In this document: positions 10,311 to 63,394 of the stretch, one piece after another
How the letters are laid out: the number at the start of each line of letters is the position of its first letter
Position numbering within the stretch: the first letter of the stretch is position 1
Assembly: GCA_041695325.1 (NCBI GenBank)
Contig: JBGFRC010000001.1
Coordinates: forward strand, 7,686-71,685
DNA from: Pseudomonadota bacterium
GTDB lineage: Bacteria > Pseudomonadota > Gammaproteobacteria > SURF-13
Length of the DNA stretch: 64,000 bases
Direction: 5' to 3'
Notes under the pieces: generated by a model
The model's input: the letters and a program-made list of their open reading frames with translations, nothing else
Database searches by the model: none
Told to the model about the DNA's origin: nothing
Program-made: the position numbers and the translations under genes

Positions 10311-10360
10311 AACATGCAGGTGCGAATTGATTCGCGCTTGAAGGCCGAATAAATCCGGCC

Positions 10361-12154: not shown

Positions 12155-12203
12155 AGTATAAGGTCAAATCTCCCGCTTTCTAAGAGGCATATTCGGTAGA
12201 CTG

Positions 12204-13412: not shown

Positions 13413-13497
13413 CCTGCTCCCAGCCAGGGTTTGCGTCAGCCTACTCTATAAAAAAATATTTTGCAACTATTTTATATGGTTACAGTTTAAACTTCGA

Positions 13498-44249: not shown

Positions 44250-44377
44250 TCCAGGATTAACCCTAGCACAGCCACGCTCGGCATTTGTTTGATCTAGCGC
44301 AAAGCAAGGCAACAATCACTGGCGGTGCGGCCAGCCGCGCTATAAAATTGAAAACAAGCGTCCCAGAGGAGAGCCGC

Positions 44378-46874: not shown

Positions 46875-46878
46875 GGGC

Positions 46879-47982
46879 ATGCGCCCGATTTTTCATCCGC
46901 AACTGGTCAACGATCCCTTCGGCGACCCCGGCGTGTACGTGGAATTCCTGTTTGAAAAGCGCGCGCTGCTGTTTGACCTGGGCGACCTGCGCGCGCTTGC
47001 GCCACGCAAGATTCTGCGCCTGAGTCACGCGTTCGTATCGCACACCCATATGGATCACTTCATGGGCTTCGATCAATTGCTGCGCATATGCCTCGGCAGG
47101 GACAAGAAGCTCAGCCTGTACGGGCCGCCTGGATTCATCGAGCAGGTCCATCACAAGCTCGCCGCCTACACCTGGAATCTCGTGCAGAATTATCCCGCCG
47201 ACTTTACCCTGGAAGCATTTGAGATTCACCCCGGCGGACAGCTCGATGCGGTTGAGTTTCACTGCCGGCATGGTTTTCAACGCGAGCGCGCACGCACGTC
47301 CGCCATCACTGGCGATATCCTCGTTGATGACCCCGCCTTTCGCGTGCATGTGGCGTTTCTGGATCACAAGACCGCGTGTCTTGCTTTTGCTCTGGAGGAA
47401 AAGCAGCACGTCAACGTGTGGAAAAACCGCCTGCAGGAGCAGGGGCTTGCCGTCGGGCCGTGGCTCAAGGATTTAAAGCACGCGCTGTTGAGCGGCGCAG
47501 CCGACGATACGCCGCTCGCCGTGCAGTGGCATGGGGTGAACGGCGGACGGGAAAAATACCTGCCGCTGGGCCTGCTCAAAACCAACATTCTGCGCATCGT
47601 GCCGGGACAGAAAGTGGCTTACGTCACCGATGTCATCTATCATCCGGAAAACGCAAAGCGCATCGTGGAGCTGGCCCGTGACTCCGACCTGCTGTTCATC
47701 GAATGCACCTTTCTGGAAGAAGATGCCGCGCGCGCGATGGAAAAATATCACCTCACCGCGCGTCAGGCGGGCGCATTGGCGCGCGCGGCCGGCGCGAAGC
47801 GGGTCATTCCGTTTCATTTTTCGCCGAAATACGCCGGCCAGCCGGAGCGGCTCACGCAGGAATTGGCGCGGGCATTTTCCCCGCCGCCTGCCTGTGCGTC
47901 GCCTGCTTGCGCGCTGCGCGCAGGCAAGCACGCGGACAGGCGCGCGGAGGCGCCTGCGCGGAATGCCCTATCGCTCCTCTGA
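46879..47982 (+). CDS. MBL-fold metallo-hydrolase (RNase Z/ElaC-like)
   Basis: HAFVSHTHMDH beta-lactamase-fold motif; ~367 aa. Start at the internal Met MRPIFHPQLVN, 5 nt after the hypD stop. Confidence 0.75.
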   Translation: MRPIFHPQLVNDPFGDPGVYVEFLFEKRALLFDLGDLRALAPRKILRLSHAFVSHTHMDHFMGFDQLLRICLGRDKKLSLYGPPGFIEQVHHKLAAYTWNLVQNYPADFTLEAFEIHPGGQLDAVEFHCRHGFQRERARTSAITGDILVDDPAFRVHVAFLDHKTACLAFALEEKQHVNVWKNRLQEQGLAVGPWLKDLKHALLSGAADDTPLAVQWHGVNGGREKYLPLGLLKTNILRIVPGQKVAYVTDVIYHPENAKRIVELARDSDLLFIECTFLEEDAARAMEKYHLTARQAGALARAAGAKRVIPFHFSPKYAGQPERLTQELARAFSPPPACASPACALRAGKHADRRAEAPARNALSLL

Positions 47983-48381
47983 TTTCGCATGACTCCACAA
48001 GGCATCCATCTCTTCCAGTGTGGACTCCTGCGGTTTGCGGCCGCGCTCGGCGAGCAGCGCCTCGATGCGCCGGAAGCGGCGCTCGAACTTGGCGTTAGCC
48101 CGTTGCAGAGCGGCTTCCGGGGCAACGTCGAGATGACGCGCCAGATTCACGCATACAAACAGCAGGTCGCCGATCTCGTCCTCCAGCCGGTCGTGACCGG
48201 CGCCTTGCGCGATTTCGTGGCGGATCTCGCGCAACTCCTCCTCGATCTTGCCCAGCACCTGTTCCACCTGCGGCCAATCGAAGCCCACGCGCGCCACGCG
48301 CCTTTGAAACTCCAGCGCGTGGGCCAGGGCCGTCAAGGAGGACTGGATGTTATCGAGCACGCTCTCAGGTTTGATCTTCAT
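47968..48381 (-). CDS. mazG: MazG-family nucleoside triphosphate pyrophosphohydrolase (short form)
   Basis: ...EELREIRHEI...EDEIGDLLFVCVNLARHL..., the MazG EExxE motifs. Confidence 0.8.
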   Translation of the reverse strand: MKIKPESVLDNIQSSLTALAHALEFQRRVARVGFDWPQVEQVLGKIEEELREIRHEIAQGAGHDRLEDEIGDLLFVCVNLARHLDVAPEAALQRANAKFERRFRRIEALLAERGRKPQESTLEEMDALWSHAKSEER

Positions 48382-48426
48382 GATCCGGTTTATGTGAGTT
48401 TTCGGACGCCCTGCCGCGCATCATAA

Positions 48427-50724
48427 ATGCACACACCTGTCATGTCATCCCCGCCGCCGCTTGCACCCTCGCGTCAGTCCAGGCGCTGGCTGCTCGGCGG
48501 ACGCGTGCAAGGCGTGGGCTTCCGCCCTTTTGTGTACCGCCTTGCGCGGCATTATGACCTCTCCGGCTGGGTAAGAAATCTCTCCGGCCGGGTGGAGATT
48601 GTGGCGCAGGGCGCAAACGGGACACTGGAACAGTTCAGCCGCGCGCTGATGGGTGAAGCGCCGCCGCTCGCCAGAGTTGAAATTATCTCTTGTGAACCTC
48701 TTGCTCAGACGCAGGACTGCGTATCCTTCCACATCCTGCCCAGCCTGTCCGGCGCAACCGAGTCCATCCATCTGCCGCCGGATTACTTTCTGTGCGCGGA
48801 GTGCTGGAGCGAATTGCACGATCCAGCCAACCGACGTTACCGCTATCCCTTCATTAACTGTACGCAGTGCGGTCCGCGCTACACCGTGATCCGCGCGCTG
48901 CCCTACGATCGCGCCAACACCACGCTCGCAGGCTTTGAACTATGTGCAGAGTGCAGCAAAGAATACGGCAATCCACTCGACCGGCGTTTTCACGCCGAGC
49001 CGGTGGCCTGCCCCGCGTGCGGCCCGCAACTGTTCTTCCATGCGCCGGGGCGCACCTCCATTGACGACACAGCGGACGCCCTGAGCGCATGCGTGGCCGC
49101 ATTGCGCGAAGGGAAGATCGTGGCCGTGAAAGGCGTCGGCGGCTATCATCTTATGTGCGATGCGCGCAGCGACTCCGCCGTGCTGCGCCTGCGCAGCCGC
49201 AAGCCGCGGCCGCACAAACCTCTGGCGGTGATGTTCCCGCTGCAGGGCGAAGACGGATTGAACGGCGTGCGCGGGCACGCGCTTGTCGGCGCCGTTGAAA
49301 CACGCGCCTTGCTTGATCCGGCGTGCCCCATCGTGCTGGTAAAAAAAGGTTCACAGGCCGGATTGTCGCCATACATCGCACCGGGGCTGAATGAAATCGG
49401 CGCACTGCTGCCGTACAGTCCGTTGCATCATTTGTTACTGGAAGAGTTCGGCGCGCCGCTGGTCGCCACCTCCGCCAATATCAGCGGCGAACCGGTGCTC
49501 ACGGATAATGGCAAAGCGCAGGCGCGTCTCGCGCACGTGGCGGATACGTTCCTGCACCACAACCGTCCCATCGCCCGCCCCGCCGACGATGCCGTAGTGC
49601 GCGTCATCGCCGGCAAACCGCGTGTGCTGCGCCTTGGCAGAGGGCTGGCGCCGCTGGAACTCCCCTTGCCTTTTACCCTGCGCCGCCCTCTTCTCGCCTG
49701 CGGCGCGCATATCAAAAACACCACCGCGCTGGCGTGGAATAATCGCGTGGTGATCTCGCCCCACATCGGCGACCTCGGTACCGTACGCAGCATGGAAATA
49801 TATGAACAAACCGCCGCCGATCTGCAAGCGCTTTACGGCGTGCGCGCGGAAATACTGATCTGCGACGCGCACCCCGGTTACGCCAACACGCGCTGGGCGA
49901 GACGCACAGGCTTGCCCGTCATCCCGGTCTGGCATCATCATGCGCACGCCTCCGTGCTGGCGGGTGAATTCCCCGAGGTCAAAAACTGGTTGGTGTTTAG
50001 CTGGGATGGCGTAGGCTTGGGTGAAGACGGGACCCTATGGGGCGGCGAGGCCCTGCTGGGGGCGCCTGGAAACTGGCGGCGCGCAGCGACCCTGCGTCCG
50101 TTTCATTTGCCGGGCGGAGATAAGGCCGCGCGCGGACTGTGGCGCAGCGCGCTCGCATTGTGTTGGGAGGCGGGTTATGCCTGGCGCGAATGTCCGAAAG
50201 ACATCGCACTGTTACAACACGCCTGGCAGCGGCGGCTCAACAGCCCGCAAACCAGCGCGGCGGGGCGATTGTTTGACGGAGCGGCGGCCCTGCTCGGCTT
50301 GGCCGTCGAGACCAGCTTTGAAGGACAAGGACCGATGTATCTGGAGGCCATCAGCGGTGAAATCGCGCAACCCGTCACGCTGCCGTTGCAGCGCAACGCG
50401 CGCGGGATTTGGCAAACCGAGTGGGCGCCGCTCATTCCCTATCTGCTCAATGAGGATTTAACTATTGGGCAACGCGGCGCGGGTTTTCACGCCAGTCTCG
50501 CCCAGACCCTGTTACAGCAGGCACGCGTGTTGCGCGATGAGCACGGCGTAACTCACGTGGGCCTGAGCGGCGGCGTGTTTCAAAACTGCGTGCTTACGGA
50601 GCAGGCGATGGCGCTGCTGAACAATGACGGCTTTGAGGTCCGCCTTACCGAACGCGTGCCGTGCAATGACGGCGGCATCAGCTACGGCCAAATCATCGAA
50701 GCACGCGCCAGGCTGAACAACTGA
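48427..50724 (+). CDS. hypF: carbamoyltransferase HypF
   Basis: 765 aa with acylphosphatase domain, two Zn-finger CxxC pairs, YrdC and Kae1-like domains. Confidence 0.95.
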   Translation: MHTPVMSSPPPLAPSRQSRRWLLGGRVQGVGFRPFVYRLARHYDLSGWVRNLSGRVEIVAQGANGTLEQFSRALMGEAPPLARVEIISCEPLAQTQDCVSFHILPSLSGATESIHLPPDYFLCAECWSELHDPANRRYRYPFINCTQCGPRYTVIRALPYDRANTTLAGFELCAECSKEYGNPLDRRFHAEPVACPACGPQLFFHAPGRTSIDDTADALSACVAALREGKIVAVKGVGGYHLMCDARSDSAVLRLRSRKPRPHKPLAVMFPLQGEDGLNGVRGHALVGAVETRALLDPACPIVLVKKGSQAGLSPYIAPGLNEIGALLPYSPLHHLLLEEFGAPLVATSANISGEPVLTDNGKAQARLAHVADTFLHHNRPIARPADDAVVRVIAGKPRVLRLGRGLAPLELPLPFTLRRPLLACGAHIKNTTALAWNNRVVISPHIGDLGTVRSMEIYEQTAADLQALYGVRAEILICDAHPGYANTRWARRTGLPVIPVWHHHAHASVLAGEFPEVKNWLVFSWDGVGLGEDGTLWGGEALLGAPGNWRRAATLRPFHLPGGDKAARGLWRSALALCWEAGYAWRECPKDIALLQHAWQRRLNSPQTSAAGRLFDGAAALLGLAVETSFEGQGPMYLEAISGEIAQPVTLPLQRNARGIWQTEWAPLIPYLLNEDLTIGQRGAGFHASLAQTLLQQARVLRDEHGVTHVGLSGGVFQNCVLTEQAMALLNNDGFEVRLTERVPCNDGGISYGQIIEARARLNN

Positions 50725-51728
50725 TGCAAGACACCCACATCAGCCTCGCGCACGGCAACGGCGGGCGCTGCATGCGCGAGCTCATCGAACGCCTGTTCGC
50801 GCATCACCTGGCCAATCCGCTGCTCGACATTGACGCCGATGCCGTGCCGCTGCCGATGCCGGAGGGCGAGATCATGCTCACCACGGACGGTTTCACCGTG
50901 CAGCCGCTGGAGTTTCCCGGCGGCGACATCGGGGCGCTCGCCGTACACGGCACGGTGAACGACCTCGCGGTGGCTGGCGCGACGCCGCTCTATCTCACCC
51001 TCAACGCGTTGATTGAGGAAGGCCTGGAAGTCGCCCAGCTCCGGCGCATCATCGCCAGCCTCGCGCGCAGCGCGCGGGAAACCGGCGTGCGCGTGGTGGC
51101 GGGCGACACCAAGGTCGTGCCGCGTGGCGCGGGCGGCGGTCTGTACCTTTCCGCCAGCGGCGTGGGTGCGCGCGCGCCTGGCGTACAGTTGGGCATAACG
51201 CAGATCAGGGAGGGTGATGCGATACTGGTCAGCGGGCCGGTGGGCGATCACGCCGTGGCCGTGCTGCTCGCACGCGAACAATTCGGCCTGCGCGGAAACA
51301 TATACTCCGACATGGCCTGCGTGCTGCCGCTCACCCGCGCCCTGCTCGCCTTTGCCGGTCTGCGCTTCATGCGCGATCCCACGCGCGGCGGACTCGCCAC
51401 CGTGCTGCACGAAATTTGCCGTGCAACCAATCTGGGCGTGCATCTTGAAGAAGCCGCCATACCCATCAGGCCCGCCGTGCGCTCGGTATGTGACATGCTC
51501 GGCTATGACCCGCTCTATCTCGCCTGCGAAGGCCGCGTAGTCGCGGTGATTGCACCCGATCAGGCGCAAGCGGCGCTCGCAGTCTGGCGCACCGCGCCGC
51601 TGGGCGACCAGGCCGCCATCATCGGACACATGACAGGCAACCCGGCGCGTGTAATCCTGGAAACCTACATCGGCGGCAGACGCATACTGGAAGAACTGGA
51701 AGACGACCCCCTGCCGCGTATCTGCTGA
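50724..51728 (+). CDS. hypE: hydrogenase expression/formation protein HypE
   Basis: AIR-synthase-like fold ending ...DDPLPRIC with the conserved C-terminal Cys; 334 aa. Confidence 0.95.
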   Translation: MQDTHISLAHGNGGRCMRELIERLFAHHLANPLLDIDADAVPLPMPEGEIMLTTDGFTVQPLEFPGGDIGALAVHGTVNDLAVAGATPLYLTLNALIEEGLEVAQLRRIIASLARSARETGVRVVAGDTKVVPRGAGGGLYLSASGVGARAPGVQLGITQIREGDAILVSGPVGDHAVAVLLAREQFGLRGNIYSDMACVLPLTRALLAFAGLRFMRDPTRGGLATVLHEICRATNLGVHLEEAAIPIRPAVRSVCDMLGYDPLYLACEGRVVAVIAPDQAQAALAVWRTAPLGDQAAIIGHMTGNPARVILETYIGGRRILEELEDDPLPRIC

Positions 51729-51897
51729 CAACACGCCTGGACCCCGGTCATCGAATCCAGGGTCGAACGGGCATCCCTTGTGACGGGACTTTCCTATTTG
51801 TCGAAAAAAAGGTATTATTTCGACACATTATTCCGATCTGTCGATGCGATCAACAGGTTCTGCGGACGTGTCGAACCACGAGATACTTGATAAACAA

Positions 51898-53037
51898 ATG
51901 AAAAATTTCGATCCCGCCAAGCCCTATAACGCACTGCCCCTGCTGCCTCCACAGGCAGATATCGAAAGCCGGACGGTACTCAAGGCTTGCATCGGCGCCC
52001 GCGCCGCGCTGGGGGAGCTCAAGCAGGCCGCAGGGTTGATTCCCAACCCGGCCATCCTGATCAACACCATTCCCCTGCTCGAAGCGCGCGCCAGTTCCGA
52101 AATCGAGAATATCGTCACCACTGCCGATCGTCTGTTCCGATATGCCCAGAATGATGCGGCAGGGCGGGCCGACCCGGCTACGAAGGAAGCGCTGCGTTAC
52201 CGTACCGCGCTGTATCAGGGGTTCCAATCGCTGAAAAAGCGGCCACTCACCACCGCCACCGCCGTGGACATCTGTCGCACCATCAAGGGTGTGGCCTTGG
52301 ATGTCCGGCGCATACCAGGCACGACACTCGCCAACGACGCTACCGGCAAGGTGATCTATACGCCACCGCAGGGCGAGGCCTTGCTGCGCAAGCTGCTCGC
52401 CAATTGGGAGCGTTTCCTGCACGAGGCCGACGAGTTCGACCCCCTCATTCGCATGGCCGTGGCGCATTGCCAGTTCGAGGCTATACACCCGTTCAGCGAC
52501 GGTAACGGCCGTACCGGTCGCATCCTCAACCTGCTGTTCCTGGTAGAACAAGGGCTGATCGATCTGCCTGTGCTCTACCTCAGCCGTCATATTCTCCGCC
52601 GCAAGGCTGATTACTACCGCCTTCTGCAGGCGGTCACCACCGGGGGACAATGGGAAAAATGGCTGCTTTACATGCTGAGCGGCGTCGAGGAGACGGCCCG
52701 CTGGACCACCACCAAGATTCAAGCCATTCGCGAACTACTTGATGCCACGGCGGATTGGGTTGGCGCAGAACTGCCCGCCATCTGCAGCCGCGAGCTCATT
52801 GAGCTGGTATTCGTTCAGCCATACTGCCGCATCGCAAATGTAGTGGAGGCCGGAATAGCCCGACGCCAGACCGCCTCAGTATATCTAAAGGAACTATGCG
52901 CTGTCGGTATCCTGAAAGAAATGAGCGCCGGACGCGAGAAGCTTTTTATCAACCCACGACTGATGACACTACTCACAGCAGAACACCACGCTGTGTCCAT
53001 ATCTCTGGGGAAGAAAAGATCAAACCATGCCAACTGA
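51898..53037 (+). CDS. Fic-family protein with C-terminal winged helix
   Basis: Fic motif HPFSDGNGRTGR; N-terminus MKNFDPAKPYNALPLLPP typical of this Fic class. Alternative upstream start at 51844. Confidence 0.85.
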   Translation: MKNFDPAKPYNALPLLPPQADIESRTVLKACIGARAALGELKQAAGLIPNPAILINTIPLLEARASSEIENIVTTADRLFRYAQNDAAGRADPATKEALRYRTALYQGFQSLKKRPLTTATAVDICRTIKGVALDVRRIPGTTLANDATGKVIYTPPQGEALLRKLLANWERFLHEADEFDPLIRMAVAHCQFEAIHPFSDGNGRTGRILNLLFLVEQGLIDLPVLYLSRHILRRKADYYRLLQAVTTGGQWEKWLLYMLSGVEETARWTTTKIQAIRELLDATADWVGAELPAICSRELIELVFVQPYCRIANVVEAGIARRQTASVYLKELCAVGILKEMSAGREKLFINPRLMTLLTAEHHAVSISLGKKRSNHAN

Positions 53038-55390
53038 AGCCGACACCTGCCGCAAATTCGTTGTCCCGAAACTCCAGGCCGCCGGGTGGGACAACGAGCC
53101 GCATTCGATCGCGGAGCAGCGCACCATCACCGACGGGCGCATCGTGCCGGTCGGCAAGGGTTTTATCCGCAAGCTGCCCAAACGCGTAGACTACCTGTTG
53201 CGCTATACACGCGATTTCCCGCTTGCCGTTGTCGAAGCCAAGGCCAGCTATAAATCCGCTGCGGACGGGATGCAGCAGGCCAAGGATTATGCCGAAATTC
53301 TGGGTCTCAAGTTCGCCTACGCCACGAACGGCCGCGACATCATCGAATTCGATCACTTCACGGGACGCGAAACGTCGTTGGCGGACTACCCGCCGCCGGC
53401 GGAGTTGTGGCGGCGCTACCGTACCGGCAGCAGGATCAAGGACGACAAAACCGCTGAACGCCTGCTTGCGCCCTTCAACCACGAGGTCGGCAAGGGTGAG
53501 CGTTACTACCAGCAAATCGCCGTCAACCGCACCGTCGAGGCAATTCTCAAAGGGCAGCGGCGTCTGCTCATCACCATGGCCACGGGCACGGGTAAAACCG
53601 TGGTGGCTTTTCAAATTTGCTGGAAGCTATGGAATGCCCGCTGGAACCGAACTGGCGATTATCGCCGGCCACGCATCCTGTATCTCGCCGACCGCAATAT
53701 TCTCATTGACCAGCCGAAGGACGGCATCTTCGCCGCCTTCGGCGACGCGCGCTACAAGATCGAGTCCGGCGAGGTGGTGAAAAGCCGCGAGATGTACTTC
53801 GCCATCTATCAGGCGCTCGCGGAAGATGAGAGGCGCGCCGGTCTGTTCAAGGAATACTCGCCCGATTACTTCGACCTCGTTATCGTGGATGAATGCCACC
53901 GCGGCAGTGCCCGCGACGACAGCGCTTGGCGCAGCATCCTCGACTACTTCCAACCCGCCGTGCAACTCGGCATGACCGCCACGCCTCTGCGCGAAGAAAG
54001 CCGCGATACCTATCTCTATTTCGGCAACCCGATATACGAGTATAGCCTGCGCCAAGGCATTGACGACGGCTTCCTGGCCCCTTACCGCGTACATCGGGTC
54101 ATCACCGAATGGGACGCCGCCGGCTGGCGCCCGAACAAGGTCGATCTTGATCGTTACGGACGCCCGATTCCCGATGACGAATACCAGACCAAGGACTTCG
54201 AGCGGGCGGTGGCATTGCGGGCTCGTACCGAAACCATCGCACGCCATCTCACCGAGTTTCTAAAGAAAACCGACCGTTTCGCCAAGACCATCGTTTTCTG
54301 CGTGGACCAGGAACACGCCAGCGAAATGCGAAAGGCTTTGACCAATCTGAACAGCGATCTCGCCGCCAGGCACCCGGATTACGTCTGCCGCGTCACCGCC
54401 GACGAGGGCGATATCGGACGCGGCCATCTCGGCCGCTTTCAGGACGTGGATACCCAGACGCCGGCAATCCTCACGACCTCGCAACTGCTCACGACCGGCG
54501 TGGATGCACCGACCTGCAAGAACGTCGTGCTCGCCCGGGTGGTGGGCTCGATGGCCGAATTCAAGCAGATCATCGGCCGGGGCACGCGCGTGCGTGACGA
54601 TTACAACAAGCTCTGGTTCAACATTCTCGATTACACCGGCTCGGCGACTCGCCTGTTTGCCGACCCGGCGTTCGACGGCGATCCGGTGAAGCTGACGGAG
54701 GAGGAGTTGCTGGCGGGCGGCGAGAGCAGGATCCTCACCAAAACCGGCATCGAAACAGAAGCTGGAGTGGCGGAACCCGAGGGGCCTTATGTGGTGGAGC
54801 CCCCGGAAGAAGAGCGCCGGAAATATTATTTTGACGGCGGTTCGGTCGAGATTGCGGCCCATCTCGTCTATGAGCTGGACCCGGACGGCAAGCAACTGCG
54901 CGTCGTGCGCTATACCGACTATGCGGCCGAGAAGGTGCGCACGCTTTGCCCCACGGCCCGCGAGTTGCGTGAAAAATGGGCCGATCCGGCACAACGCTCC
55001 GAGATCATTCAGGCCCTCGAAGAGCGGGGCGTCAGCTTCATGGAGCTGGCGGAACAGGCGAAGATGCCCGAGGCCGACCCCTTCGACCTGCTCTGTCATC
55101 TCGCCTTCAACGCGCCGCTGCGCACGCGCCGCGAGCGCGCCCAGCGCCTGAAGAGCGAGCGCAAGGACTTCTTCGAGCAATACGGACCCGAAGCCAGCCA
55201 GATTCTGGAAGAGCTGCTGGAAAAATATGCCGAGCACGGCAATGCCCAGTTCCTGCTGCCGGACGTACTGCACGTCCCGCCCATCTCGTCGCATGGCACG
55301 GTGCGCGAAATCAGCGCCGCTTTCGGCGGTCCCGAGAAACTTCGGCAGGCCGTGAACGACCTGCAAAACCTGCTGTACGCCGCATCGTGA
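53027..55390 (+). CDS. hsdR: type I restriction enzyme R subunit
   Basis: N-terminal restriction domain; helicase motifs MATGTGKT and DECHRG; 787 aa. Confidence 0.9.
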   Translation: MPTEADTCRKFVVPKLQAAGWDNEPHSIAEQRTITDGRIVPVGKGFIRKLPKRVDYLLRYTRDFPLAVVEAKASYKSAADGMQQAKDYAEILGLKFAYATNGRDIIEFDHFTGRETSLADYPPPAELWRRYRTGSRIKDDKTAERLLAPFNHEVGKGERYYQQIAVNRTVEAILKGQRRLLITMATGTGKTVVAFQICWKLWNARWNRTGDYRRPRILYLADRNILIDQPKDGIFAAFGDARYKIESGEVVKSREMYFAIYQALAEDERRAGLFKEYSPDYFDLVIVDECHRGSARDDSAWRSILDYFQPAVQLGMTATPLREESRDTYLYFGNPIYEYSLRQGIDDGFLAPYRVHRVITEWDAAGWRPNKVDLDRYGRPIPDDEYQTKDFERAVALRARTETIARHLTEFLKKTDRFAKTIVFCVDQEHASEMRKALTNLNSDLAARHPDYVCRVTADEGDIGRGHLGRFQDVDTQTPAILTTSQLLTTGVDAPTCKNVVLARVVGSMAEFKQIIGRGTRVRDDYNKLWFNILDYTGSATRLFADPAFDGDPVKLTEEELLAGGESRILTKTGIETEAGVAEPEGPYVVEPPEEERRKYYFDGGSVEIAAHLVYELDPDGKQLRVVRYTDYAAEKVRTLCPTARELREKWADPAQRSEIIQALEERGVSFMELAEQAKMPEADPFDLLCHLAFNAPLRTRRERAQRLKSERKDFFEQYGPEASQILEELLEKYAEHGNAQFLLPDVLHVPPISSHGTVREISAAFGGPEKLRQAVNDLQNLLYAAS

Positions 55391-55412
55391 AACGAGACAG
55401 CAAAGACACCCC

Positions 55413-55507
55413 TGGATTGCTTCGCGGCCTTCGGCCGTTCGCAATGACGGCGACGGCGGGTGCAACCTATCGTCATTGCGAGCGCCCACAGGGCGCGAAG
55501 CAATCCA
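55413..55507. repeat. nested palindromic ~95-bp element, left flank of the GIY-YIG gene
   Basis: Outer arms tggattgcttcgcg / cgcgaagcaatcca and inner arms cgcaatgacg / cgtcattgcg. A second copy lies at 55839-55942. Confidence 0.7.
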
Positions 55508-55548
55508 GTAGTCAATGAGTATTGGCAACACGAAATCCTCCAGAGCCC

Positions 55549-55836
55549 ATGAAACAACCCTGCGTCTACATCATGGCAAACAAACGAAACGGCACGTTAT
55601 ATACGGGCGTTACGTCAAACCTTGTACAACGCGTCCACCAACACAAGGAAGGGGTGGTGGAGGGGTTTACCAGCAAGTACGACTGCAAAATGCTTGTCTG
55701 GTACGAGCCGCACGAAACGATGGAAAGCGCCATCCAGCGGGAGAAACAGATCAAAGGGGGAAGTCGTGCAAAAAAGCTGGCGCGGATTGAGGCCGCAAAT
55801 CCAGCATGGCGGGATTTGTATGGCGACATCGTATAG
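55549..55836 (+). CDS. GIY-YIG nuclease family protein (UPF0213/COG2827 type)
   Basis: MKQPCVYIMANKRNGTLYTGVTSNLVQRVHQHKEG...EREKQIKG..., the GIY-YIG motif; ~95 aa. Confidence 0.85.
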   Translation: MKQPCVYIMANKRNGTLYTGVTSNLVQRVHQHKEGVVEGFTSKYDCKMLVWYEPHETMESAIQREKQIKGGSRAKKLARIEAANPAWRDLYGDIV

Positions 55837-55838
55837 CC

Positions 55839-55942
55839 TGGATTGCTTCGCGCCCTTCGGTCGCTCGCAATGACGAGGCCGCATCAGCGGTGGCGTCATT
55901 GCGAGGAGGGCGGAGCCCGACGAAGCAATCCAGAATCAGCCC
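55839..55942. repeat. nested palindromic ~100-bp element, right flank of the GIY-YIG gene
   Basis: Same arms as 55413-55507 (tggattgcttcgcg...cgcaatgacg...cgtcattgcg...cgaagcaatcca). Begins 2 nt after the GIY-YIG stop. Confidence 0.7.
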
Positions 55943-55995
55943 GGAAGTCCCCGAGAAACCACCACACGACGACATAAAACGAGAGAGCACGCGTA

Positions 55996-57546
55996 ATGCC
56001 ACGTAACAGGAAGACAAAGGCGGACAAGCCGCTCACCACCGCCCAATCGCTCGGCAGCCTGCTCAAGTCCGCGCGCGACATTATGCGCAAGGACAAGGGC
56101 CTGAACGGCGATCTCGACCGCCTGCCGATGCTCACCTGGATCATGTTCCTCAAGTTTCTGGACGACTTGGAGCTTCAGCGGGAGGAAGAGGCGAAGCTAG
56201 CGGGTACCCGGTTCAAGGCCGCTGTCGAAAAACCGTATCGCTGGCGCGACTGGGGCGCGAAGCCGGACGGCATCACCGGCGACGAGCTGCTCGCCTTCAT
56301 CAATCAGGATAAGAGTCGCCGCCCTGACGGCAGCAGGGGACCGGGTCTGTTCGCCTATCTGCGCGGTCTGACCAGCTCCAACGGCGACAACCGCCGCGAC
56401 GTGATCGCGACCGTATTCAAAGGCGTGGATAACCGCATGAAGAGCGGTTACCTGCTGCGCGACGTTATCAACAAGGTCAACGGCATCCATTTCACGGCCA
56501 GCGACGAACTGCACACGCTCGGCTCGCTCTACGAATCCATGCTGCGCGAGATGCGCGACGCCGCGGGCGACTCCGGCGAGTTCTATACACCGCGTCCGGT
56601 GGTGCGCTTCATGGTCGAGGCGGTCAATCCTCGGCTCGACGAAACCGTGCTCGACCCGGCTTGCGGCACCGGTGGCTTTCTGGTCGAGGCGTTCAATCAC
56701 CTGAGCCAACAGGTGGAAACTGTCGCCGGCCGCAAACTGCTTCAGGGCAGGTCTCTTTATGGTTTTGAGCCCAAGCCGCTGCCGTATCTGCTCGCACAGA
56801 TGAACCTGTTATTGCACGGCCTCGATGCCCCGCAGATTGACCCCGGCAACGCGCTGCGCTTCAAGCTCACCGAGATCGGCGAGAAGAACCGCGTGTACGT
56901 GATCCTTACCAACCCGCCCTTCGGCGGAGAGGAGGAAAAGGGTATTCAGGACAACTTCCCCGAGAATCGGCAGACCGCCGAAACTGCACTGCTGTTTCTT
57001 CAGCTCATTATGCGCCGGCTGCATCGTGCGCCGGGGAAATCCGGCTATGCCCGTGCGGCGGTGGTCGTACCCAACGGCACGCTTTTCGGCGACGGTGTCT
57101 GCGCCCGCATCAAGGAAGAACTGCTCAAGGATTTCAACCTGCACACCATCGTGCGCCTGCCGAACGGCGTATTCGCGCCGTACACGAGCATCCCGACCAA
57201 CATCCTGTTCTTCGACCGTTCCGGCCCGACGAAAGACGTGTGGTACTACGAGCAACCCTTGCCCGAGGGTCGTAAGAACTACACCAAAACCCAGGCGATT
57301 CAGTTTGAGGAATTCAAACCTTGCCTTGAATGGTGGAAGAAGCGCGAGGAAAACGATCGCGCCTGGAAGGTGAGCGCCGAAGAATTGCTCGCTAACAACT
57401 GCAACCTCGACCGCAAGAACCCACGCGGCAAGGTGGACTTCGAGCACCTGCCACCGGAACAGCTCGCCGATGACATCCTGAAGAAGGAACAGCGTATCGC
57501 CGAGATCATGACTGAAATCAAGACTATGTTGGCGCAGAAGGTGTGA
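55996..57546 (+). CDS. hsdM: type I restriction-modification N6-adenine DNA methyltransferase subunit M
   Basis: NPPFGG catalytic motif and HsdM N-terminal domain; 516 aa. Confidence 0.95.
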   Translation: MPRNRKTKADKPLTTAQSLGSLLKSARDIMRKDKGLNGDLDRLPMLTWIMFLKFLDDLELQREEEAKLAGTRFKAAVEKPYRWRDWGAKPDGITGDELLAFINQDKSRRPDGSRGPGLFAYLRGLTSSNGDNRRDVIATVFKGVDNRMKSGYLLRDVINKVNGIHFTASDELHTLGSLYESMLREMRDAAGDSGEFYTPRPVVRFMVEAVNPRLDETVLDPACGTGGFLVEAFNHLSQQVETVAGRKLLQGRSLYGFEPKPLPYLLAQMNLLLHGLDAPQIDPGNALRFKLTEIGEKNRVYVILTNPPFGGEEEKGIQDNFPENRQTAETALLFLQLIMRRLHRAPGKSGYARAAVVVPNGTLFGDGVCARIKEELLKDFNLHTIVRLPNGVFAPYTSIPTNILFFDRSGPTKDVWYYEQPLPEGRKNYTKTQAIQFEEFKPCLEWWKKREENDRAWKVSAEELLANNCNLDRKNPRGKVDFEHLPPEQLADDILKKEQRIAEIMTEIKTMLAQKV

Positions 57547-57548
57547 GA

Positions 57549-58721
57549 ATGGCGTGGCCGAATGTGACGCTAAGAGAAGTTTTGACGCCGATCGAACGTC
57601 CTGAGTCACCGCTGCCAGGCACGGCCTACCGCCAGCTCGGAGTAAAGCTGTGGGGCGAAGGCGCTTATGAGCGCGAGACCATTGACGGCGCTGCCACGAA
57701 ATACTCGACGCTTTCCCGCATAGAAGCAGATGACGTTGTGGTCAACAAGATTTGGGCACGCAGCGGCAGCGTCGCGGTAGTGCAGTTTCCGCTTGCTGGA
57801 TGCTACGTCAGCGGAGAATTTCCGACGTTCACTGTGAATCCCGCGAAGTTGTCGCCGCGCTGGATGCATTGGCTGACCAAGACGCCGAACTTCTGGTTGC
57901 AGTGCGACGAGAAGTCACGGGGCACAAGTGGAAAGAACCGCATCAAGCCTGAGCAGTTCCTGAGTGTCGAAATCCCCCTGCCGCCGCTGGCCGAACAGCG
58001 GCGCATCGTGGCGCGCATCGAAGCCCTGTCAGCCAAAATCGCCGAAGTCCGCTCCTTTCGCCAAGAGAGTGTGGAGGAAGGAGAGCGTTTGCTCATTTGT
58101 ATGGCCCATAGACGTGACCTAGACGACAACGCAAAGCAGCGCTCTGGATGGCGTCGCCTTAAACTTCGTGAGTGCATTCAGCTCGTTGACGACTCATGCA
58201 GTGTAGAGGCCGATAAGAGCTATCCAAATCTTGGTATCTACAGTTTTGGCCGAGGGCTTTTTCACAAACCCCCGATCGAGGGCATTTCAACCGCGGCCAA
58301 AACATTGCGGCGCGTGCATCGGGGGCAGTTTATCTACAGTCGCCTGTTCGCATTTGAGGGTGCCTACGGTATGGTGTCCGATGAATTCGATAGGCATTTT
58401 GTCTCCGGTGAGTATCCAACGTTCGAATGCAAGCGGGACTTGATTCGTGCGGAATTTCTGGCCGCATATTTCAGGTCAGCAGAGGTGTGGAGGAGCGTGG
58501 CTATAGGTAGTAAGGGCTTGGGCGATCGTCGCCAGCGCGTACAACCGGACCAAGTGCTCGGTTCAGATATCTGGCTGCCGCCAATTGCTTTACAAAATCA
58601 GCTTGCTGAGTCCCAGGCCAAGGTCGATGCGCTCAAACACCTACAGTCCGAATCCGCCGCCGAACTCGATGCCATGCTGCCCGCCATCCTCGACTGCGCG
58701 CTTAAGGGAGAACTGTCATGA
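57549..58721 (+). CDS. hsdS: type I restriction-modification specificity subunit S
   Basis: Two target-recognition domains separated by conserved helical spacers; start overlaps the hsdM stop. Confidence 0.85.
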   Translation: MAWPNVTLREVLTPIERPESPLPGTAYRQLGVKLWGEGAYERETIDGAATKYSTLSRIEADDVVVNKIWARSGSVAVVQFPLAGCYVSGEFPTFTVNPAKLSPRWMHWLTKTPNFWLQCDEKSRGTSGKNRIKPEQFLSVEIPLPPLAEQRRIVARIEALSAKIAEVRSFRQESVEEGERLLICMAHRRDLDDNAKQRSGWRRLKLRECIQLVDDSCSVEADKSYPNLGIYSFGRGLFHKPPIEGISTAAKTLRRVHRGQFIYSRLFAFEGAYGMVSDEFDRHFVSGEYPTFECKRDLIRAEFLAAYFRSAEVWRSVAIGSKGLGDRRQRVQPDQVLGSDIWLPPIALQNQLAESQAKVDALKHLQSESAAELDAMLPAILDCALKGELS

Positions 58722-58879
58722 GCAATATGGATACATTGCGGCTTTACGCCGAAGGCAAGGTCTTTGTGGAAGGGCGATTCTACCTTCGGGAAACGATTAG
58801 GCTTCTTGACAGGGGATGGCAATACCGTTGGCATCCAGATAGCGGAGACCGCCGACGTTCACAGCTTTTCGCAGACCGC

Positions 58880-59056
58880 GTACGACAAAGGACCGCAAGC
58901 GGCGCTCGCTGTCTGGCGCGCCCTGCCGCTGGGCCAACAAGCCGCCATCATCGGGCGCGTGACGGCACCCCGCCGCGCGCAACCCTGGAAACCCCCATCG
59001 GCGGCAGACGCACCCTGGAAGAACTGGAAGATGACCCCCTGCCGCGCATTTGCTAA
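58880..59056 (+). pseudogene. degenerate, frameshifted duplicate of the hypE 3' end
   Basis: About 85% nucleotide identity to 51565-51731. It encodes ...QAALAVWRALPLGQQAAIIG... then, after a 1-nt frameshift, ...IGGRRTLEELEDDPLPRIC-stop, mirroring the HypE C-terminus. Confidence 0.7.
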
Positions 59057-59122
59057 AAACCTTACATACAAGGCCCGTATCAATATCCCGCTCGATTATT
59101 CTTCGCGCTTTAGGTATCCCGC

Positions 59123-59896
59123 ATGTTCTGGAGTTTAAAATCCTGGCGGCGTCGCCGTATTTTGAAGCGCCGCTCGTTACCGGATGGTATATGGCGGCGC
59201 GTGCTGGAGCGGCTTGTCTTTCTGCAAGACTTGACTCAAGAGGAGCTTGGCCGGTTGCGCGCTTGGGTTGTGCTGTTTTTGCATGATAAGAAATTCAGTA
59301 CGGCGGGCGGACTGGCGCTCACCGACGAAATGCGCGTGATGATTGCGGCGCAGGCCTGTATTCTGATTCTGAATCTCGACCTTGACTATTACGACGACTG
59401 GGTGGAAATCATCGTCTACCCGGATGAATTTATTCCCGATCATGAATACGAGGACGAAACGGGCGTCGTGCATCGTGTGCACGATCCGCTCAGCGGTGAA
59501 TCGTGGCCTCATGGGCCGGTCATTCTGTCGTGGGCGGACGCCGCCGGCCGCGGGGCGGCACCGGGCTATAGCGTGGTGATACACGAATTCGCCCACAAGC
59601 TCGATATGCGCAACGGCGAGGCCAATGGCTTTCCGCAGTTACATGCGGAGATGAGCCGGCCGGCCTGGAGCGCTGCATTCGGCGCGGCTTACGCCGATTT
59701 TTGCATGAAGGTGGATGCAGGCGATGAGACGGAGATTGACCCCTACGCCGCGGAAAGTCCGGCGGAGTTCTTCGCGGTCGTGAGTGAAGCATTCTTCACC
59801 ATCCCGCACAGCGTGCAGCAAATGTATCCGGCGGTTTACCGGCAATTGGCGCTCTTTTACCGCCAAGATACTCTGGCGAGGCGCGGCAACCAATAA
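59123..59896 (+). CDS. mtfA: M90-family zinc metallopeptidase (MtfA-like)
   Basis: HEFAHKLD zinc motif and MtfA-like length (257 aa). Confidence 0.8.
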   Translation: MFWSLKSWRRRRILKRRSLPDGIWRRVLERLVFLQDLTQEELGRLRAWVVLFLHDKKFSTAGGLALTDEMRVMIAAQACILILNLDLDYYDDWVEIIVYPDEFIPDHEYEDETGVVHRVHDPLSGESWPHGPVILSWADAAGRGAAPGYSVVIHEFAHKLDMRNGEANGFPQLHAEMSRPAWSAAFGAAYADFCMKVDAGDETEIDPYAAESPAEFFAVVSEAFFTIPHSVQQMYPAVYRQLALFYRQDTLARRGNQ

Positions 59897-59922
59897 ACGA
59901 ATGAGGCCAGCCAGCCGTACTA

Positions 59923-60162
59923 CCAGTTTGTTGAAAAAGGCCGTCCTGGCCTTTTTCAACTCGCTTCGGCGCGGCACATGTCCGCGCCTCGCTCCGAAAA
60001 TCAAACACTTGCGTGTTTGATTTTCGATGCGGCACTTTTCCGCTGCGCCGTCCCGGCTCCGCGGAAAAGTCCAGGGCGCACGTCCTGTGCGCCCGTTCGC
60101 CATGCCACCGGCATGGCTCACCCCTGTGGCGCCTGGCAGTTCGTTTTTCAACGAACCGCTAC
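59923..60162 (-). repeat. ~240-bp multi-hairpin intergenic repeat element, copy B (inverted relative to copy A)
   Basis: Its reverse complement aligns at about 95% identity with 15486-15723, including all internal palindromes. Confidence 0.8.
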
Positions 60163-61199
60163 TCTTCGCGCGCTCCGACCATACGGCGTGCCGCCAGGGT
60201 CACGGCTTCGGCGTTGGGGATGGAGGCGGCCTCCAGAGCGCCGTTGTAGGGCGTGGGCACGTCCGCGCCCGCGGCGCGCGCGATGGGCGCATCGAGTTCA
60301 TAAAACGCCGCCTCTTGCAGCGCCGCCACGATCTCCGCCCCGGCGCCGGCGAATTTGCAGTCCTCTTCCACCACGATGGCGCGGTGGGTCTTTTTGAGGG
60401 AGGCGACGAGCAACGGCAAATCTATGGGCTTCAAGCTTCTCAAATCAATCACCTCCGCTGAAATGTCGTCTTCGCTGGCGAGCACGTCGGCGGCCTGCAG
60501 GCACACATCCACCATGCGATGCCAGGCGATGAGGGTGACGTGCGCGCCCGCGCGGCGCACGGCGGCGCTGTGCAGGGGCGGGGCTTCGGCGTGAACGTTG
60601 AATGGGTCTTTCTTGAAATAGAGCAGCTCATGCTCCAGCACGATGATGGGATCGTCTTCGCGTATGGCTTGGGTCAACTGCCAGTAGGAATCCTGCGCCG
60701 TGCCGGGCGCCACGATGCGCAGTCCCGGCACGTTCATCAGGGTGTGCTCCAGGCGCTGCGAGTGCTGGGCGGCGAGTTGTCTCGCGACGCCGCCGGGCAT
60801 GCGCACCACCAGCGGCACGCGCAGTTTTCCGCCAGACATGTAGCGCAGCTTGGCGGCCATGTTGATGATGGCGTCCAGGGCGAGCAGCGCGAAGTTGACG
60901 GTCATGATCTCGATCACCGGGCGCCCGCCCACCAGCGCCGCGCCCACGCCGAGGCCGGTAAAGCTGTTTTCCGAGATCGGGGTGTCGCGCACGCGCCATT
61001 CACCGTACTTGGCGTATAGGCCCTGCGTCACGCGATAGCTGCCGCCGTACAGGCCGACGTCCTCGCCCATGATGAACACCGCCTCGTCCGCGGCCAAGGC
61101 CTGATCGAGCGCGATGTTGAGCGCCTCCCACACCATGAGCTCGGAGCGCGCCTTGGCGGGCGCGATGAGACCGGCGCTTTCCTGAGCGGCGTGTTTCAC
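60159..61199 (-). CDS. 2-oxoacid (pyruvate/acetoin) dehydrogenase E1 component beta subunit
   Basis: Transketolase-like pyrimidine-binding and C-terminal domains; ATGA-coupled to the upstream alpha subunit gene. Confidence 0.9.
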   Translation of the reverse strand: MKHAAQESAGLIAPAKARSELMVWEALNIALDQALAADEAVFIMGEDVGLYGGSYRVTQGLYAKYGEWRVRDTPISENSFTGLGVGAALVGGRPVIEIMTVNFALLALDAIINMAAKLRYMSGGKLRVPLVVRMPGGVARQLAAQHSQRLEHTLMNVPGLRIVAPGTAQDSYWQLTQAIREDDPIIVLEHELLYFKKDPFNVHAEAPPLHSAAVRRAGAHVTLIAWHRMVDVCLQAADVLASEDDISAEVIDLRSLKPIDLPLLVASLKKTHRAIVVEEDCKFAGAGAEIVAALQEAAFYELDAPIARAAGADVPTPYNGALEAASIPNAEAVTLAARRMVGAREE

Positions 61200-62173
61200 G
61201 GGCGGCCCTGGTAGAGATTGAGCGGCCGCCGGTAAACGCCATAGTAAAGATCTTCCGGCGCGGGGCCTTGCTCGGCGAAGCGTATCGCTTCCTCGACTAC
61301 GGCGTGCGCCTTCTGGTGCAGGGTTTCGATGTCCTCTTCACTGATCCAGTTATTTTCCAGCGCCCGGTTGCGCAGATTGAGCAGCGGGTCGCGCGCCTTG
61401 AGCTCGGCGACTTCCAGCGCCGAACGGTAGTCTCCGCCGTCGGCCATGGAATGGCCGCGGAAGCGGTAGGTATCGCACTCCAGAAGAAACGGGCCGTTGC
61501 CGCCGCGCACGTGTTGCACAGCGTCACGCGCAGCCTCATACACCACGAGTACATCCATGCCGTCCACGCGCCTGCCCGGCACGCCGTTGCCGCAACCGCG
61601 CTTGTACACCTCGACCACCGCGGCCTGGCGGTGCACCTCGGTGCCGATCTGATAGTGATTGTTCTCGCAGATGAACAGCACCGGCAATTTCCACAGCGCC
61701 GCCATGTTGAGCGACTCGTGAAACGTGCCCTGGTTGGCCGCGCCCTCGCCGAAAAAGCACAGCACCACGTCCGGAGAACGGTTCATCGCCAGCCAATAGC
61801 CAACGCCGATGGCCACCGGAAACGTCTCACCCACAATGGCGTAGCCGCCAAGGAAGCGATGCTCGGCGCTGAACAGATGCATGGAGCCGCCGTAACCGCC
61901 GGAGCAACCGGTGGCGCGCCCGAACATCTCCGCCATGATGGCGCCGGGCGGAACGCCGCGCATCAAGGCGTGCACGTGCTCGCGGTAGGTGCTGACCGCG
62001 TAGTCGCCCGGCTCCGCCGCGCGCAGGCTGCCCACCGCCACCGCCTCTTCCCCGGGGTAGAGGTGCAGGAAGCCGCCGACCTTACCCTGGGTATACTGTT
62101 CCGCCGCGGCCTCCTCGAAACGGCGCGCCAGAAGCATGTCGTAGAGAAACTGCCTGACCAGGTCCCTCTGCAC
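61196..62173 (-). CDS. 2-oxoacid dehydrogenase E1 component alpha subunit (TPP-dependent)
   Basis: TPP-binding region ...GGNGPFLLECDTYRFRGHS...; 325 aa. Confidence 0.9.
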   Translation of the reverse strand: MQRDLVRQFLYDMLLARRFEEAAAEQYTQGKVGGFLHLYPGEEAVAVGSLRAAEPGDYAVSTYREHVHALMRGVPPGAIMAEMFGRATGCSGGYGGSMHLFSAEHRFLGGYAIVGETFPVAIGVGYWLAMNRSPDVVLCFFGEGAANQGTFHESLNMAALWKLPVLFICENNHYQIGTEVHRQAAVVEVYKRGCGNGVPGRRVDGMDVLVVYEAARDAVQHVRGGNGPFLLECDTYRFRGHSMADGGDYRSALEVAELKARDPLLNLRNRALENNWISEEDIETLHQKAHAVVEEAIRFAEQGPAPEDLYYGVYRRPLNLYQGRP

Positions 62174-62250
62174 GGCACGCCCCCTGTTTTATCCGAAACG
62201 GGAGGAGCGCGCTGATTCTGCACCCCTCCCCATCTCGCCCAAGTTCAATT

Positions 62251-62748
62251 TTACTGAATCGCGATACTGTGACGCTTGGCCTTTTCCCGTTTGGGAATGG
62301 TCAACTCCAGCAAGCCGTCCTTGAATACTGCCTTGGCCCTGGCATCGTCCACCTCCGCCGGCAAGGCTATCGTGCGCGTAAACGCCCCGTGCATGATCTC
62401 ACAGCGGCAATACTCGCCCTTTTCCTCTTTTTCCTCGCGACGGGTGCAGCCCTTGATGGTGACGCTGTTCTCCGTCATGGACACATCCAGATCCTTCTTA
62501 TCCACGCCGGGAAGCTCCGCGCGCACCAGGATTTCATCGTCGCGGTCCACGACGTCCGCGCGCGGCGTCAGCTCGCCCGTCAAATCGCCCCACAGCGGCC
62601 GCGCCCAGCTTAAGGGCCGCATCCAGCCGCGTGGAAACATTCTTTCAAACATCTGTTCCATTTCCTCGAACGGGCTCATGATATGCATGGGGGCGGCCTT
62701 CTGCACCTCCTGCCCTTTGGCGGCAACTTGTTTCGTTTCGTTAGCCAT
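62251..62748 (-). CDS. Hsp20/alpha-crystallin family small heat-shock protein
   Basis: Alpha-crystallin domain ...VRAELPGVDKKDLDVSMTENSVTIKG...; start taken at the second ATG (MANETKQ), which has an AAGGAGGAA RBS. Confidence 0.88.
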   Translation of the reverse strand: MANETKQVAAKGQEVQKAAPMHIMSPFEEMEQMFERMFPRGWMRPLSWARPLWGDLTGELTPRADVVDRDDEILVRAELPGVDKKDLDVSMTENSVTIKGCTRREEKEEKGEYCRCEIMHGAFTRTIALPAEVDDARAKAVFKDGLLELTIPKREKAKRHSIAIQ

Positions 62749-62893
62749 GGTCTGTTCCTCCTTCATTTAGCGGGAAAATACCCGGTTACCACGCAACCTA
62801 ACGCGCAACCTTATATAAAATATTAAAAGGCTGCATCGTTCGCGCCTTGATATAGATCAATTTTCAGCGTGTCCGCCCCGCCGGCAAGAACCA

Positions 62894-63394
62894 TTAGCCA
62901 TTCCATATGGTTGCCGTCTCCGGCGCAGTGCTGCGTGGACAGGGGTCGCGTAACCATGCTGTTATTTTGGCGCGAGCGGCCTCAGTCCATTGAGGAAGAT
63001 AGTGCTCCACTGCGAAGGTTGCATCCTCCGGCTGGATGGGGCCGACCTCCAAACCCAGCAGACACAAACGTGCCGGCATGGCGGCGAGCGTGCGCGCCAG
63101 CGCCACGCATTCCGCCACGCCGAGATGGTGACTCGACCAGGCGGCATTCGCCAGGCGCGCGATCTCGTCCCCCTCCAGACAACAGAGACCGCCCGCCTCA
63201 CCGGCGCCGCATACGGCGTCGAGCAGCAGCACGCTGTCTTCCTTGCGCCAGTGTTCGAGCAGCGCCGGCCCCGGGCGGTCCAAGACGCTCACCTCGACGC
63301 ACCGCTCGTCAAACAGGCCGCGCAAGGCTTGCGCCGCCCGCCAGCCGGCCTGGTCGTCACCCCACGGCGAACCGAGGCCGATGACGCGGATCAT
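62894..63394 (-). CDS. hydrogenase maturation protease (HoxW/HyaD family)
   Basis: MIRVIGLGSPWGDDQAGW...HHLGV..., the endopeptidase signature. ATGA-coupled to the upstream hydrogenase large-subunit gene. Confidence 0.85.
   Translation of the reverse strand: MIRVIGLGSPWGDDQAGWRAAQALRGLFDERCVEVSVLDRPGPALLEHWRKEDSVLLLDAVCGAGEAGGLCCLEGDEIARLANAAWSSHHLGVAECVALARTLAAMPARLCLLGLEVGPIQPEDATFAVEHYLPQWTEAARAKITAWLRDPCPRSTAPETATIWNG

Follow-up and report, generated by a model that had tools for sequence, protein, structure and literature searches.

In E. coli, the element e14 (and likewise phage 21) is found in the gene icd, which bears a diverged replacement 3' end, and the displaced terminus is kept at the far end as the pseudogene icdC (PMC13626634, citing Hill et al.). 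This architecture is the closest look-alike of the locus described here, the 3' end of the gene hypE in a 64,000-nt stretch of DNA from a Pseudomonadota bacterium of the lineage SURF-13 (assembly GCA_041695325.1, contig JBGFRC010000001.1, positions 7,686 to 71,685 of the forward strand), which we refer to as the window. Between two hypE ends, the window carries an insert of 7,162 bp, a block of about 7.2 kb of anti-phage genes that comprises a SoFic-type Fic protein and a type I restriction-modification (R-M) operon. The e14 element has an integrase, an excisionase and a defined att core (PMC13626634), whereas the hypE locus is without a recombinase and without an intact element end, and its divergent tract extends upstream of the repeat; neither an integrase nor foreign DNA starting at an att core was found here.

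A second class, described by Nobusato, Furuta and Kobayashi, is formed by R-M insertions with long target duplications, which are known for type I systems and for the 3' ends of genes. They are defined by R and M genes in an insert of less than 20 kb, a direct repeat of more than 30 bp, the absence of mobility genes and a single copy of the repeat in the comparison genome (Furuta, Abe and Kobayashi; PMC2853133). The hypE locus shares these descriptive traits, with its 7,162-bp insert devoid of integrase and transposase genes, a repeat of 167 bp and one copy in the relative used for comparison. The published repeats, however, are mostly 93-100% identical (PMC2853133), whereas those at hypE are 86% identical and apparently come from two lineages; moreover, the insert is a mosaic with SoFic and one junction lies inside a truncated gene. 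The low identity suggests that at least one of the copies does not stem from the target. In homology-facilitated illegitimate recombination, the third system, the illegitimate joints use 3-10 bp of microhomology (PMC6382021, summarising de Vries & Wackernagel 2002, Prudhomme 2002 and Meier & Wackernagel 2003). The hypE locus resembles such events in that one end seems to be anchored by homology, as inferred from a breakpoint near position 51230, and the other is joined at minimal microhomology, thereby trapping several kb of foreign DNA; it differs from the reports by its microhomology of 0-2 nt and its duplication of 167 bp. In the reported events, recipient DNA is said to be usually deleted.

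The analysis presented below makes it probable that the insert is a composite anti-phage island which arose, in either direction, by recombination between island-bearing and island-free relatives, with a homologous crossover on one side and an illegitimate joint on the other. If so, it would illustrate that a defence island can be taken up at the end of a needed gene while this gene stays active and without a recombinase of the island's own. The combination of a replacement terminus and a decaying remnant, which is usually read as the footprint of a prophage or an integrase, could then also be left behind when diverged relatives recombine homologously on one side only and illegitimately on the other, which calls for caution in the prediction of islands and att sites. 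The locus presents no new mechanism or protein family and is a clean but fairly ordinary gain of an island; it adds a well-resolved environmental case to the few catalogued R-M insertions that have long repeats at their flanks.

The island and its empty site

Between 48.4 and 59.9 kb of the window, the plus strand carries hypF, hypE, fic, hsdR, a GIY-YIG open reading frame (ORF), hsdM, hsdS, a partial hypE terminus and the gene of an M90 peptidase, in this order (Table 1). The remaining hyp genes are located upstream of hypE, and a NiFe hydrogenase is encoded downstream. An earlier note on this DNA, made from the sequence alone, had described a fic-hsdR-hsdM-hsdS cassette directly after hypE, and matches to Pfam, PADLOC and NCBIfam models confirm this gene content; judged by these families, the block would be a defence island.

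The closest genome found is the metagenome-assembled genome (MAG) SURF_13 (L002), whose HypE is 90% identical. L002 is collinear with positions 44001-51732 and 58896-64000 of the window and has the empty site that the earlier note had proposed to look for in relatives, in which hypE is followed by 66 nt and the M90 gene. A segment of 166 bp (L002 10844-11009), present in a single copy in L002, aligns to both copies of the repeat. Relative to this close relative, the 7.2-kb block is an insertion. The conspecific contigs recovered (99.4-99.9% identical) all carry the upstream copy of the repeat, copy A, and those that extend past hypE enter fic. The 59-kb contig of a 99.4% identical MAG (L175; GCA_041695115.1, JBGFRM010000017.1) ends at a point corresponding to position 51736, 5 nt past the A-type hypE stop codon; this end at the left edge of the island suggests a strain-level polymorphism that starts there.

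Table 1. Features at the hypE locus, in window coordinates.
Feature	Position	Strand	Remarks
hypF	48427-50724	+	
hypE	50724-51731	+	intact, 334 aa, ends in PRIC; Pfam AIRS and AIRS_C
Repeat copy A, working hypE terminus	51565-51735	+	last 167 bp of hypE plus 4 nt past the stop
Linker between hypE stop and Fic cassette	51736-51783	+	about 50 nt (52-nt); no significant fold
Upstream region of the Fic cassette	51784-51897	+	four TGTCGA half-sites
SoFic-type Fic AMP-transferase	51844 (or 51898)-53037	+	Pfam Fic_N, Fic, SoFic-like_C
hsdR, EcoAI/EcoEI (type IB) family	53027-55390	+	start overlaps the fic stop by 11 nt
Nested mini-element	55411-55935	+	GIY-YIG ORF (55549-55836; Pfam GIY-YIG 2e-17) between two palindromic hairpins of about 95 nt
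hsdM, N6-adenine methyltransferase	55996-57546	+	N6_Mtase 6e-63; PADLOC MTase_I end to end
hsdS, specificity subunit	57543-58721	+	PADLOC Specificity_I end to end
Relic of a fourth operon gene (orf297; 297 aa in relatives)	58718-58895	+	172 nt between hsdS and copy B
Repeat copy B, displaced hypE terminus	58894-59060	+	167 bp; 1-nt deletion after 58963; TAA stop; fused to M90 upstream region as in L002
M90 (MtfA-like) peptidase, native right-hand neighbour	59123-59896	+	Pfam Peptidase_M90 1.6e-92; 93% nucleotide identity to L002

Two hypE termini with different histories

The repeat copies A and B are 85.5-86% identical, and with a BLAST E-value of about 1e-48, their match is not due to chance. 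Copy B begins 172 nt past the hsdS stop codon and, despite its frameshift, ends in ...DDPLPRIC-TAA, so that the frameshifted copy of roughly 85% identity reported by the earlier note is indeed present, at 58894-59060. There are 25 differences between A and B over the 167 nt; at these positions, L002 agrees with B in 14 cases, with A in seven and with neither in four. The identity between A and B (85.9%) lies between those of A (84.1%) and B (88.3%) to the L002 ortholog. Past the stop codon, A reads TGACAAC, as do the relatives L001 and L003, and B reads TAAAAACCTTACAT, as does L002. The left ends of both copies share an identical, imperfectly palindromic stretch of 16 nt, CGCAAGCGGCGCTCGC; neither the repeat boundary nor the sequence past the hypE stop shows a significant fold.

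The changes private to each copy point in the direction opposite to their present roles. Copy B has five synonymous and two non-synonymous private changes plus one frameshift, which is more synonymous than expected under neutrality (p=0.02), and copy A has four synonymous and nine non-synonymous ones, a synonymous share below that expected from the local constraint (p=0.03). The ratio of non-synonymous to synonymous divergence (dN/dS) is 0.24 between B and L002 and 0.68 between A and B. It therefore appears that B was a functioning terminus until recently and that A has a history of relaxed constraint; this pattern argues against an old in situ duplication and for two origins. The synonymous divergence (dS) between A and B, 0.21, is similar in size to that between the window and L002 (0.27-0.30) and thus too large for a recent in situ duplication. 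These changes, together with the L002-type fusion of copy B to the M90 upstream region, support the proposal of the earlier note that B is the displaced original terminus. Informative sites in B lean towards L002 (4:2:1), whereas those in A do not (3:4:1); a quartet analysis of the 167-nt repeat alone, which gave 2:2:1 and 2:4:2, has too few sites to decide. The identity of 84% between copy A and L002 had been considered as a proof of foreign origin and was dropped; the sliding-window identity across hypF and hypE spans 75-97%.

The body of hypE, analysed with L001 and L169 as references, also falls into two parts. For positions 50724-51230, the informative sites group the window with L002 (26:4:1), whereas the ratio is 5:9:5 for positions 51231-51728 (Fisher p=7e-5). 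This places a topology breakpoint near 51230, approximately 335 bp upstream of the repeat, and hypE is probably chimeric, its 5' 500 nt being sister to L002 and the remainder not. In the window, hypE 51231-51731 is followed by TGACAACACGC and then by fic. Across positions 44000-64000, blocks of about 80-85% nucleotide identity to L002 and blocks of about 94-97% follow one another every few hundred bp, a pattern that indicates frequent homologous exchange among these lineages.

At the right end, orf297 is cut after codon 261 exactly at the start of copy B (GACAAAGGACCG followed by CAAGCGG), with 0-2 nt of microhomology. The insert itself is a mosaic of the linker, the Fic cassette, an EcoAI-family R-M operon with the GIY-YIG element and the orf297 relic, with module boundaries at 51784, 53017/53027 and 58721, and fic alone stands beside a hypE fragment in another lineage (L082). 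All ORFs of the insert were assigned, and none encodes a recombinase, integrase or transposase, in line with the statement of the earlier note that no integrase remains. There is no tRNA gene within 47000-62000 and no Rfam match within 50500-60000. When viral contigs of IMG/VR were searched for hypE-terminus motifs, the first pattern gave no hit and the second gave two, both on the non-coding strand of unrelated genes and taken as chance.

Origin of the island

Recombination between two relatives would start from two related strains, one with the island just after an intact hypE and the other with the empty hypE-M90 site. One side would have been resolved by homologous recombination, with a crossover near 51230, and the other joined illegitimately, a break in orf297 being linked to position -167 of a hypE copy. 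In the favoured direction, a tract of about 7.7 kb (approximately 51231-58893) would have been imported into an L002-like recipient; it would hold the terminal 500 nt of the donor's hypE with copy A, followed by the linker, fic, the R-M genes and what is left of orf297. Copy B would then be the recipient's own terminus, redundant and now decaying, and the 167-bp duplicate would be a by-product: the joint lay 167 bp ahead of the stop codon in the recipient, and the DNA that came in had a complete hypE end. A self-encoded recombinase would not be needed. HypE is kept at full length with its C-terminal PRIC, and hypE would have remained functional since the incoming DNA brought a complete 3' end. 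We count the mirror image within the same explanation: an L002-like fragment reaching from copy B to M90 would have entered an island-bearing genome, and its left end would have been joined into orf297.

Several observations weigh against this explanation or leave parts of it undecided. The identity between the window and L002 is mosaic throughout (75-97%), so that a breakpoint near the island may have nothing to do with the insertion. The block from copy B to M90 shows an unusually high identity to L002 (94-95%), which is just as compatible with the mirror-image direction, and flank identity does not decide whether the island or the right flank was imported. The 167 nt hold few informative sites, and the repeat alone does not discriminate between the groupings of A with B, B with L002 and A with L002. 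The microhomology at the right junction falls short of the 3-10 bp of homology-facilitated illegitimate recombination (PMC6382021), the 16-nt identical stretch at the left end of the repeat could be an att core, and no working B-type allele was present among the same-species contigs found. In the more distant lineage L082, finally, the hypE fragment breaks off at the equivalent of position 51557, 8 nt from the B-equivalent start (51565); this nearness hints at a preferred site, which would be unexpected for a purely random illegitimate join.

The 16-nt stretch and the L082 breakpoint are also what speaks for a site-specific integrative element like e14 in icd, which would have used an attB core located about 167 bp ahead of the hypE stop codon, carried the replacement terminus and later lost its integrase and right part by deletion. 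The relaxed evolution of copy A would fit a passenger copy on such an element, and with the clear erosion of the island at its right end, a loss of genes is conceivable. We nevertheless consider this origin doubtful: the insert has no recombinase, its modules have separate histories, the deletion would need to have stopped exactly at the att core, inside orf297, and the divergent hypE tract begins approximately 335 bp upstream of the supposed core. In addition, a second insertion in L001 has other repeat boundaries (-55 to +65), and the IMG/VR contigs lack the hypE-terminus motif. The earlier note had read the locus as an integrative element that targeted the 3' end of hypE; the replacement terminus and the displaced original stand, but a dedicated element acting through an att site is not supported, in view of the right junction at codon 261 of orf297 with its 0-2 nt of microhomology, the mosaic insert, the breakpoint near 51230 and the lack of viral contigs with a hypE terminus. 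The att-like core that it had suggested to search for in the repeat has a candidate in the 16-nt stretch at the left end of both copies, yet the right junction lies inside the truncated orf297.

Recombination between two relatives also has to be compared with an in situ insertion with long target duplication in the strict sense, whereby a 167-bp target would have been duplicated upon insertion of the R-M genes, both copies being native and diverging later. All descriptive traits of Furuta et al. 2010 (PMC2853133) are present, and two shared derived sites join A with B. We still rate this as quite unlikely, given that the identity of A to B (85.9%) is not above that of either copy to L002 (84.1% and 88.3%) and that the non-functional copy B has purifying-type changes and the shorter branch and the functional copy A neutral-type changes and the longer branch, whereas an old duplication predicts the opposite. 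A single act of insertion would also leave the truncated-gene junction and the mosaic insert unexplained. A chimera of assembly or binning, in which reads of two strains were mis-joined, might be suspected since the sources are metagenome assemblies and since the L175 contig ends 5 nt past the hypE stop. Such an error is highly improbable, because each junction recurs with 100% identity in a Logan assembly of a different run, the left one in L081 (SRR35803137), which matches 47937-55856, and the right one in L171 (SRR35774035), which matches 57142-59953. The left junction is additionally contained in a contig of the Joint Genome Institute (JGI) and in a further Logan contig, and A and B share no exact run long enough for a collapse of the k-mer graph. 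Hence, the structure does not stem from an error in a single assembly.

The Fic cassette

In E. coli, SoFic is associated with toxicity and with a small antitoxin gene, AS1, downstream of fic (PMC12249575). The protein of the window resembles the SoFic defence type in its Fic_N, Fic and SoFic-like_C architecture, its Fic motif, its N-terminal inhibitory motif and a score above the equivalog cutoff (NCBIfam SoFic equivalog, 609 bits against a cutoff of 550; PADLOC SoFic, 5.8e-120). The Fic motif HPFSDGNGRTGR and the inhibitory motif SSEIEN agree with the family motifs HxFx(D/E)GNGRxxR and (S/T)xxxE(G/N), and judged by these families, the protein may cause abortive infection by AMPylation. In contrast to the E. 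coli system, in which AS1 follows fic, hsdR here directly overlaps the fic stop codon; it starts 11 nt before it, leaving no room for an AS1-like small ORF, and none was found after fic, although AS1 is not established as a feature of all SoFic loci. Three start codons are candidates, namely 51844 (the longest ORF), 51868 (one gene call, 389 aa) and 51898 (the MKNFDP equivalent, where homologs start). An exact look-up of the 389-aa call gave no match. Fic homologs with 77-78% identity occur in unrelated contexts, one of them beside a P4-type integrase and Prim-Pol, which is uninformative for this locus.

The linker between hypE and the cassette has no homolog in the fetched loci apart from a weak resemblance to the sequence past the L001 hypE stop. 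From about position 51784 onwards, the upstream region of fic is 88%, 82% and 79% identical to those of three unrelated contexts. Similarity to other Fic cassettes stops at 53017, and the last few codons of fic are unlike those of its relatives. The inverted repeat that the earlier note had offered as a candidate operator exists, yet as the palindrome TGTCGAAA-N11-TTTCGACA at 51799-51825 rather than with a 12-nt spacer at about 51787-51814. It is followed by a second, imperfect palindrome at 51838-51856, with a TGTCGA half-site from 51839, and a further single site at 51869. Of the 17 TGTCGA/TCGACA sites in the 64-kb window, four are located in 51784-51897, and upstream regions with TGTCGA sites are conserved before Fic genes in four unrelated contexts. 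The sites are plausibly a candidate operator of the Fic cassette itself and not part of the integration event. They are likely to form an operator at which SoFic-like proteins regulate their own genes by means of the winged-helix C-terminal domain, and fic is probably auto-regulated through them.

The type I R-M operon and its accessory parts

The R-M operon looks intact, and its three subunits fit the family models end to end. HsdR matches restrict_EcoAI of NCBIfam over its entire length (1038 bits against a cutoff of 550) and contains the Pfam domains HSDR_N, ResIII, Helicase_C and EcoEI_R_C, which represent the nuclease region, the SF2 motor and the C-terminal domain of type IB enzymes; from its families, the system is predicted to restrict unmethylated DNA. 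In hsdS, the conserved spacer regions are 83-93% identical to those of relatives and the two target-recognition domains have diverged; an exact look-up of HsdS found no match. Nucleotide similarity to eight close R-M loci starts exactly at the hsdR ATG (53027) and extends to the hsdS stop codon, with a gap from 55386 to 55995. Among 80 related metagenomic loci (HsdR 71-87% identical), hsdM lies downstream of hsdR in 69, i.e. those in which hsdM was detected, the order R-M-S is common to them, and none of the 80 has fic or hypE beside the R-M genes. Against plasmids and phages, only the hsdR-hsdM part of the island gave matches; on plasmids, these have a nucleotide identity of approximately 64-72%, and fic never accompanies them. 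In its present position, hsdR appears to be translationally coupled to fic; it lacks an upstream region of its own and is probably expressed from the fic promoter or from an internal one.

Two parts of the operon had escaped the earlier note. One is the GIY-YIG ORF between two hairpins (55411-55935), which sits precisely in the spacer between hsdR and hsdM, genes that abut each other in related R-M loci. The hairpins have folding z-scores of -8.0 and -7.6, and their palindromes of about 95 nt are the sole copies in the window. The whole looks like a small mobile, hairpin-flanked cassette. The ORF encodes the catalytic domain only, and the palindromes are built from a 39-nt unit, CTGGATTGCTTCGC...TCGCAATGACG.

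The other is the relic of a fourth gene, orf297, which makes up the 172 nt between hsdS and copy B. Its remnants correspond to codons 1-31 (87% identical) and, in another frame, to codons 233-261 (83% identical); about 604 nt have been deleted internally at a CTTGA microhomology, and the 3' end was lost at the junction with copy B. An intact arrangement of hsdM, hsdS and orf297 is found in L174, in which orf297 (2606-3499) follows hsdS with the same ATGA overlap and is translationally coupled to it. The protein has no match in Pfam or NCBIfam and may be an uncharacterised accessory gene product of this R-M family.

Variation at the hypE end in relatives

The stretch from hypE to acoB is variable and has different cargo in every relative examined. 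In L169, hypE is followed by 18 nt and acoB and M90 is absent, and in L003, about 8 kb of other genes lie between hypE and M90 (5465-13470), including an ORF of 1993 aa on the minus strand. The MAG L001 (HypE 88% identical) carries a higB/higA pair on the minus strand between two 87% identical 115-nt copies (2046-2160 and 3012-3124) of a repeat that consists of the last 55 nt of hypE and 65 nt downstream and includes the palindrome TTACGCGTGGCGTAA. This is a second insertion at a hypE end, with repeat boundaries that differ from those of the window, and L001 is the only one of 80 genome loci with another duplicated hypE end. A 46-nt match in L058 was rejected as such a duplicate; it lies within or after other ORFs and is without the PRIC ending.

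It is conceivable, though we think it unlikely, that the hypE 3' end is an integrase-free, recurrent insertion hot spot in this clade, at which addiction-type modules (R-M and SoFic here, higBA in L001) enter with long and variable duplications of the gene end. The trigger could be double-strand breaks at the GATC at 51558-51561, and the repeats could later allow RecA-mediated excision and re-entry. This would correspond to the 'virus-like' life cycle of R-M systems that was hypothesised, not demonstrated, by the Kobayashi group.

The L082 lineage (1629-1720; also L083 and L084) has a 62-nt hypE fragment, equivalent to window positions 51496-51557, which is followed by 15 nt and then by the Fic cassette. 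It is without hypF, most of hypE, the R-M genes and M90, and carries fic together with DUF6933. Its fic is 88% identical to that of the window at the nucleotide level, whereas the flanks are 70-80% identical. A phylogenetic placement of the hypE fragment was discarded, the fragment being too short and too conserved. Of the five GATC sites of hypE, the one mentioned above is situated exactly between the point at which the L082 fragment breaks off and that at which copy B starts, which may reflect a common break site or a coincidence.

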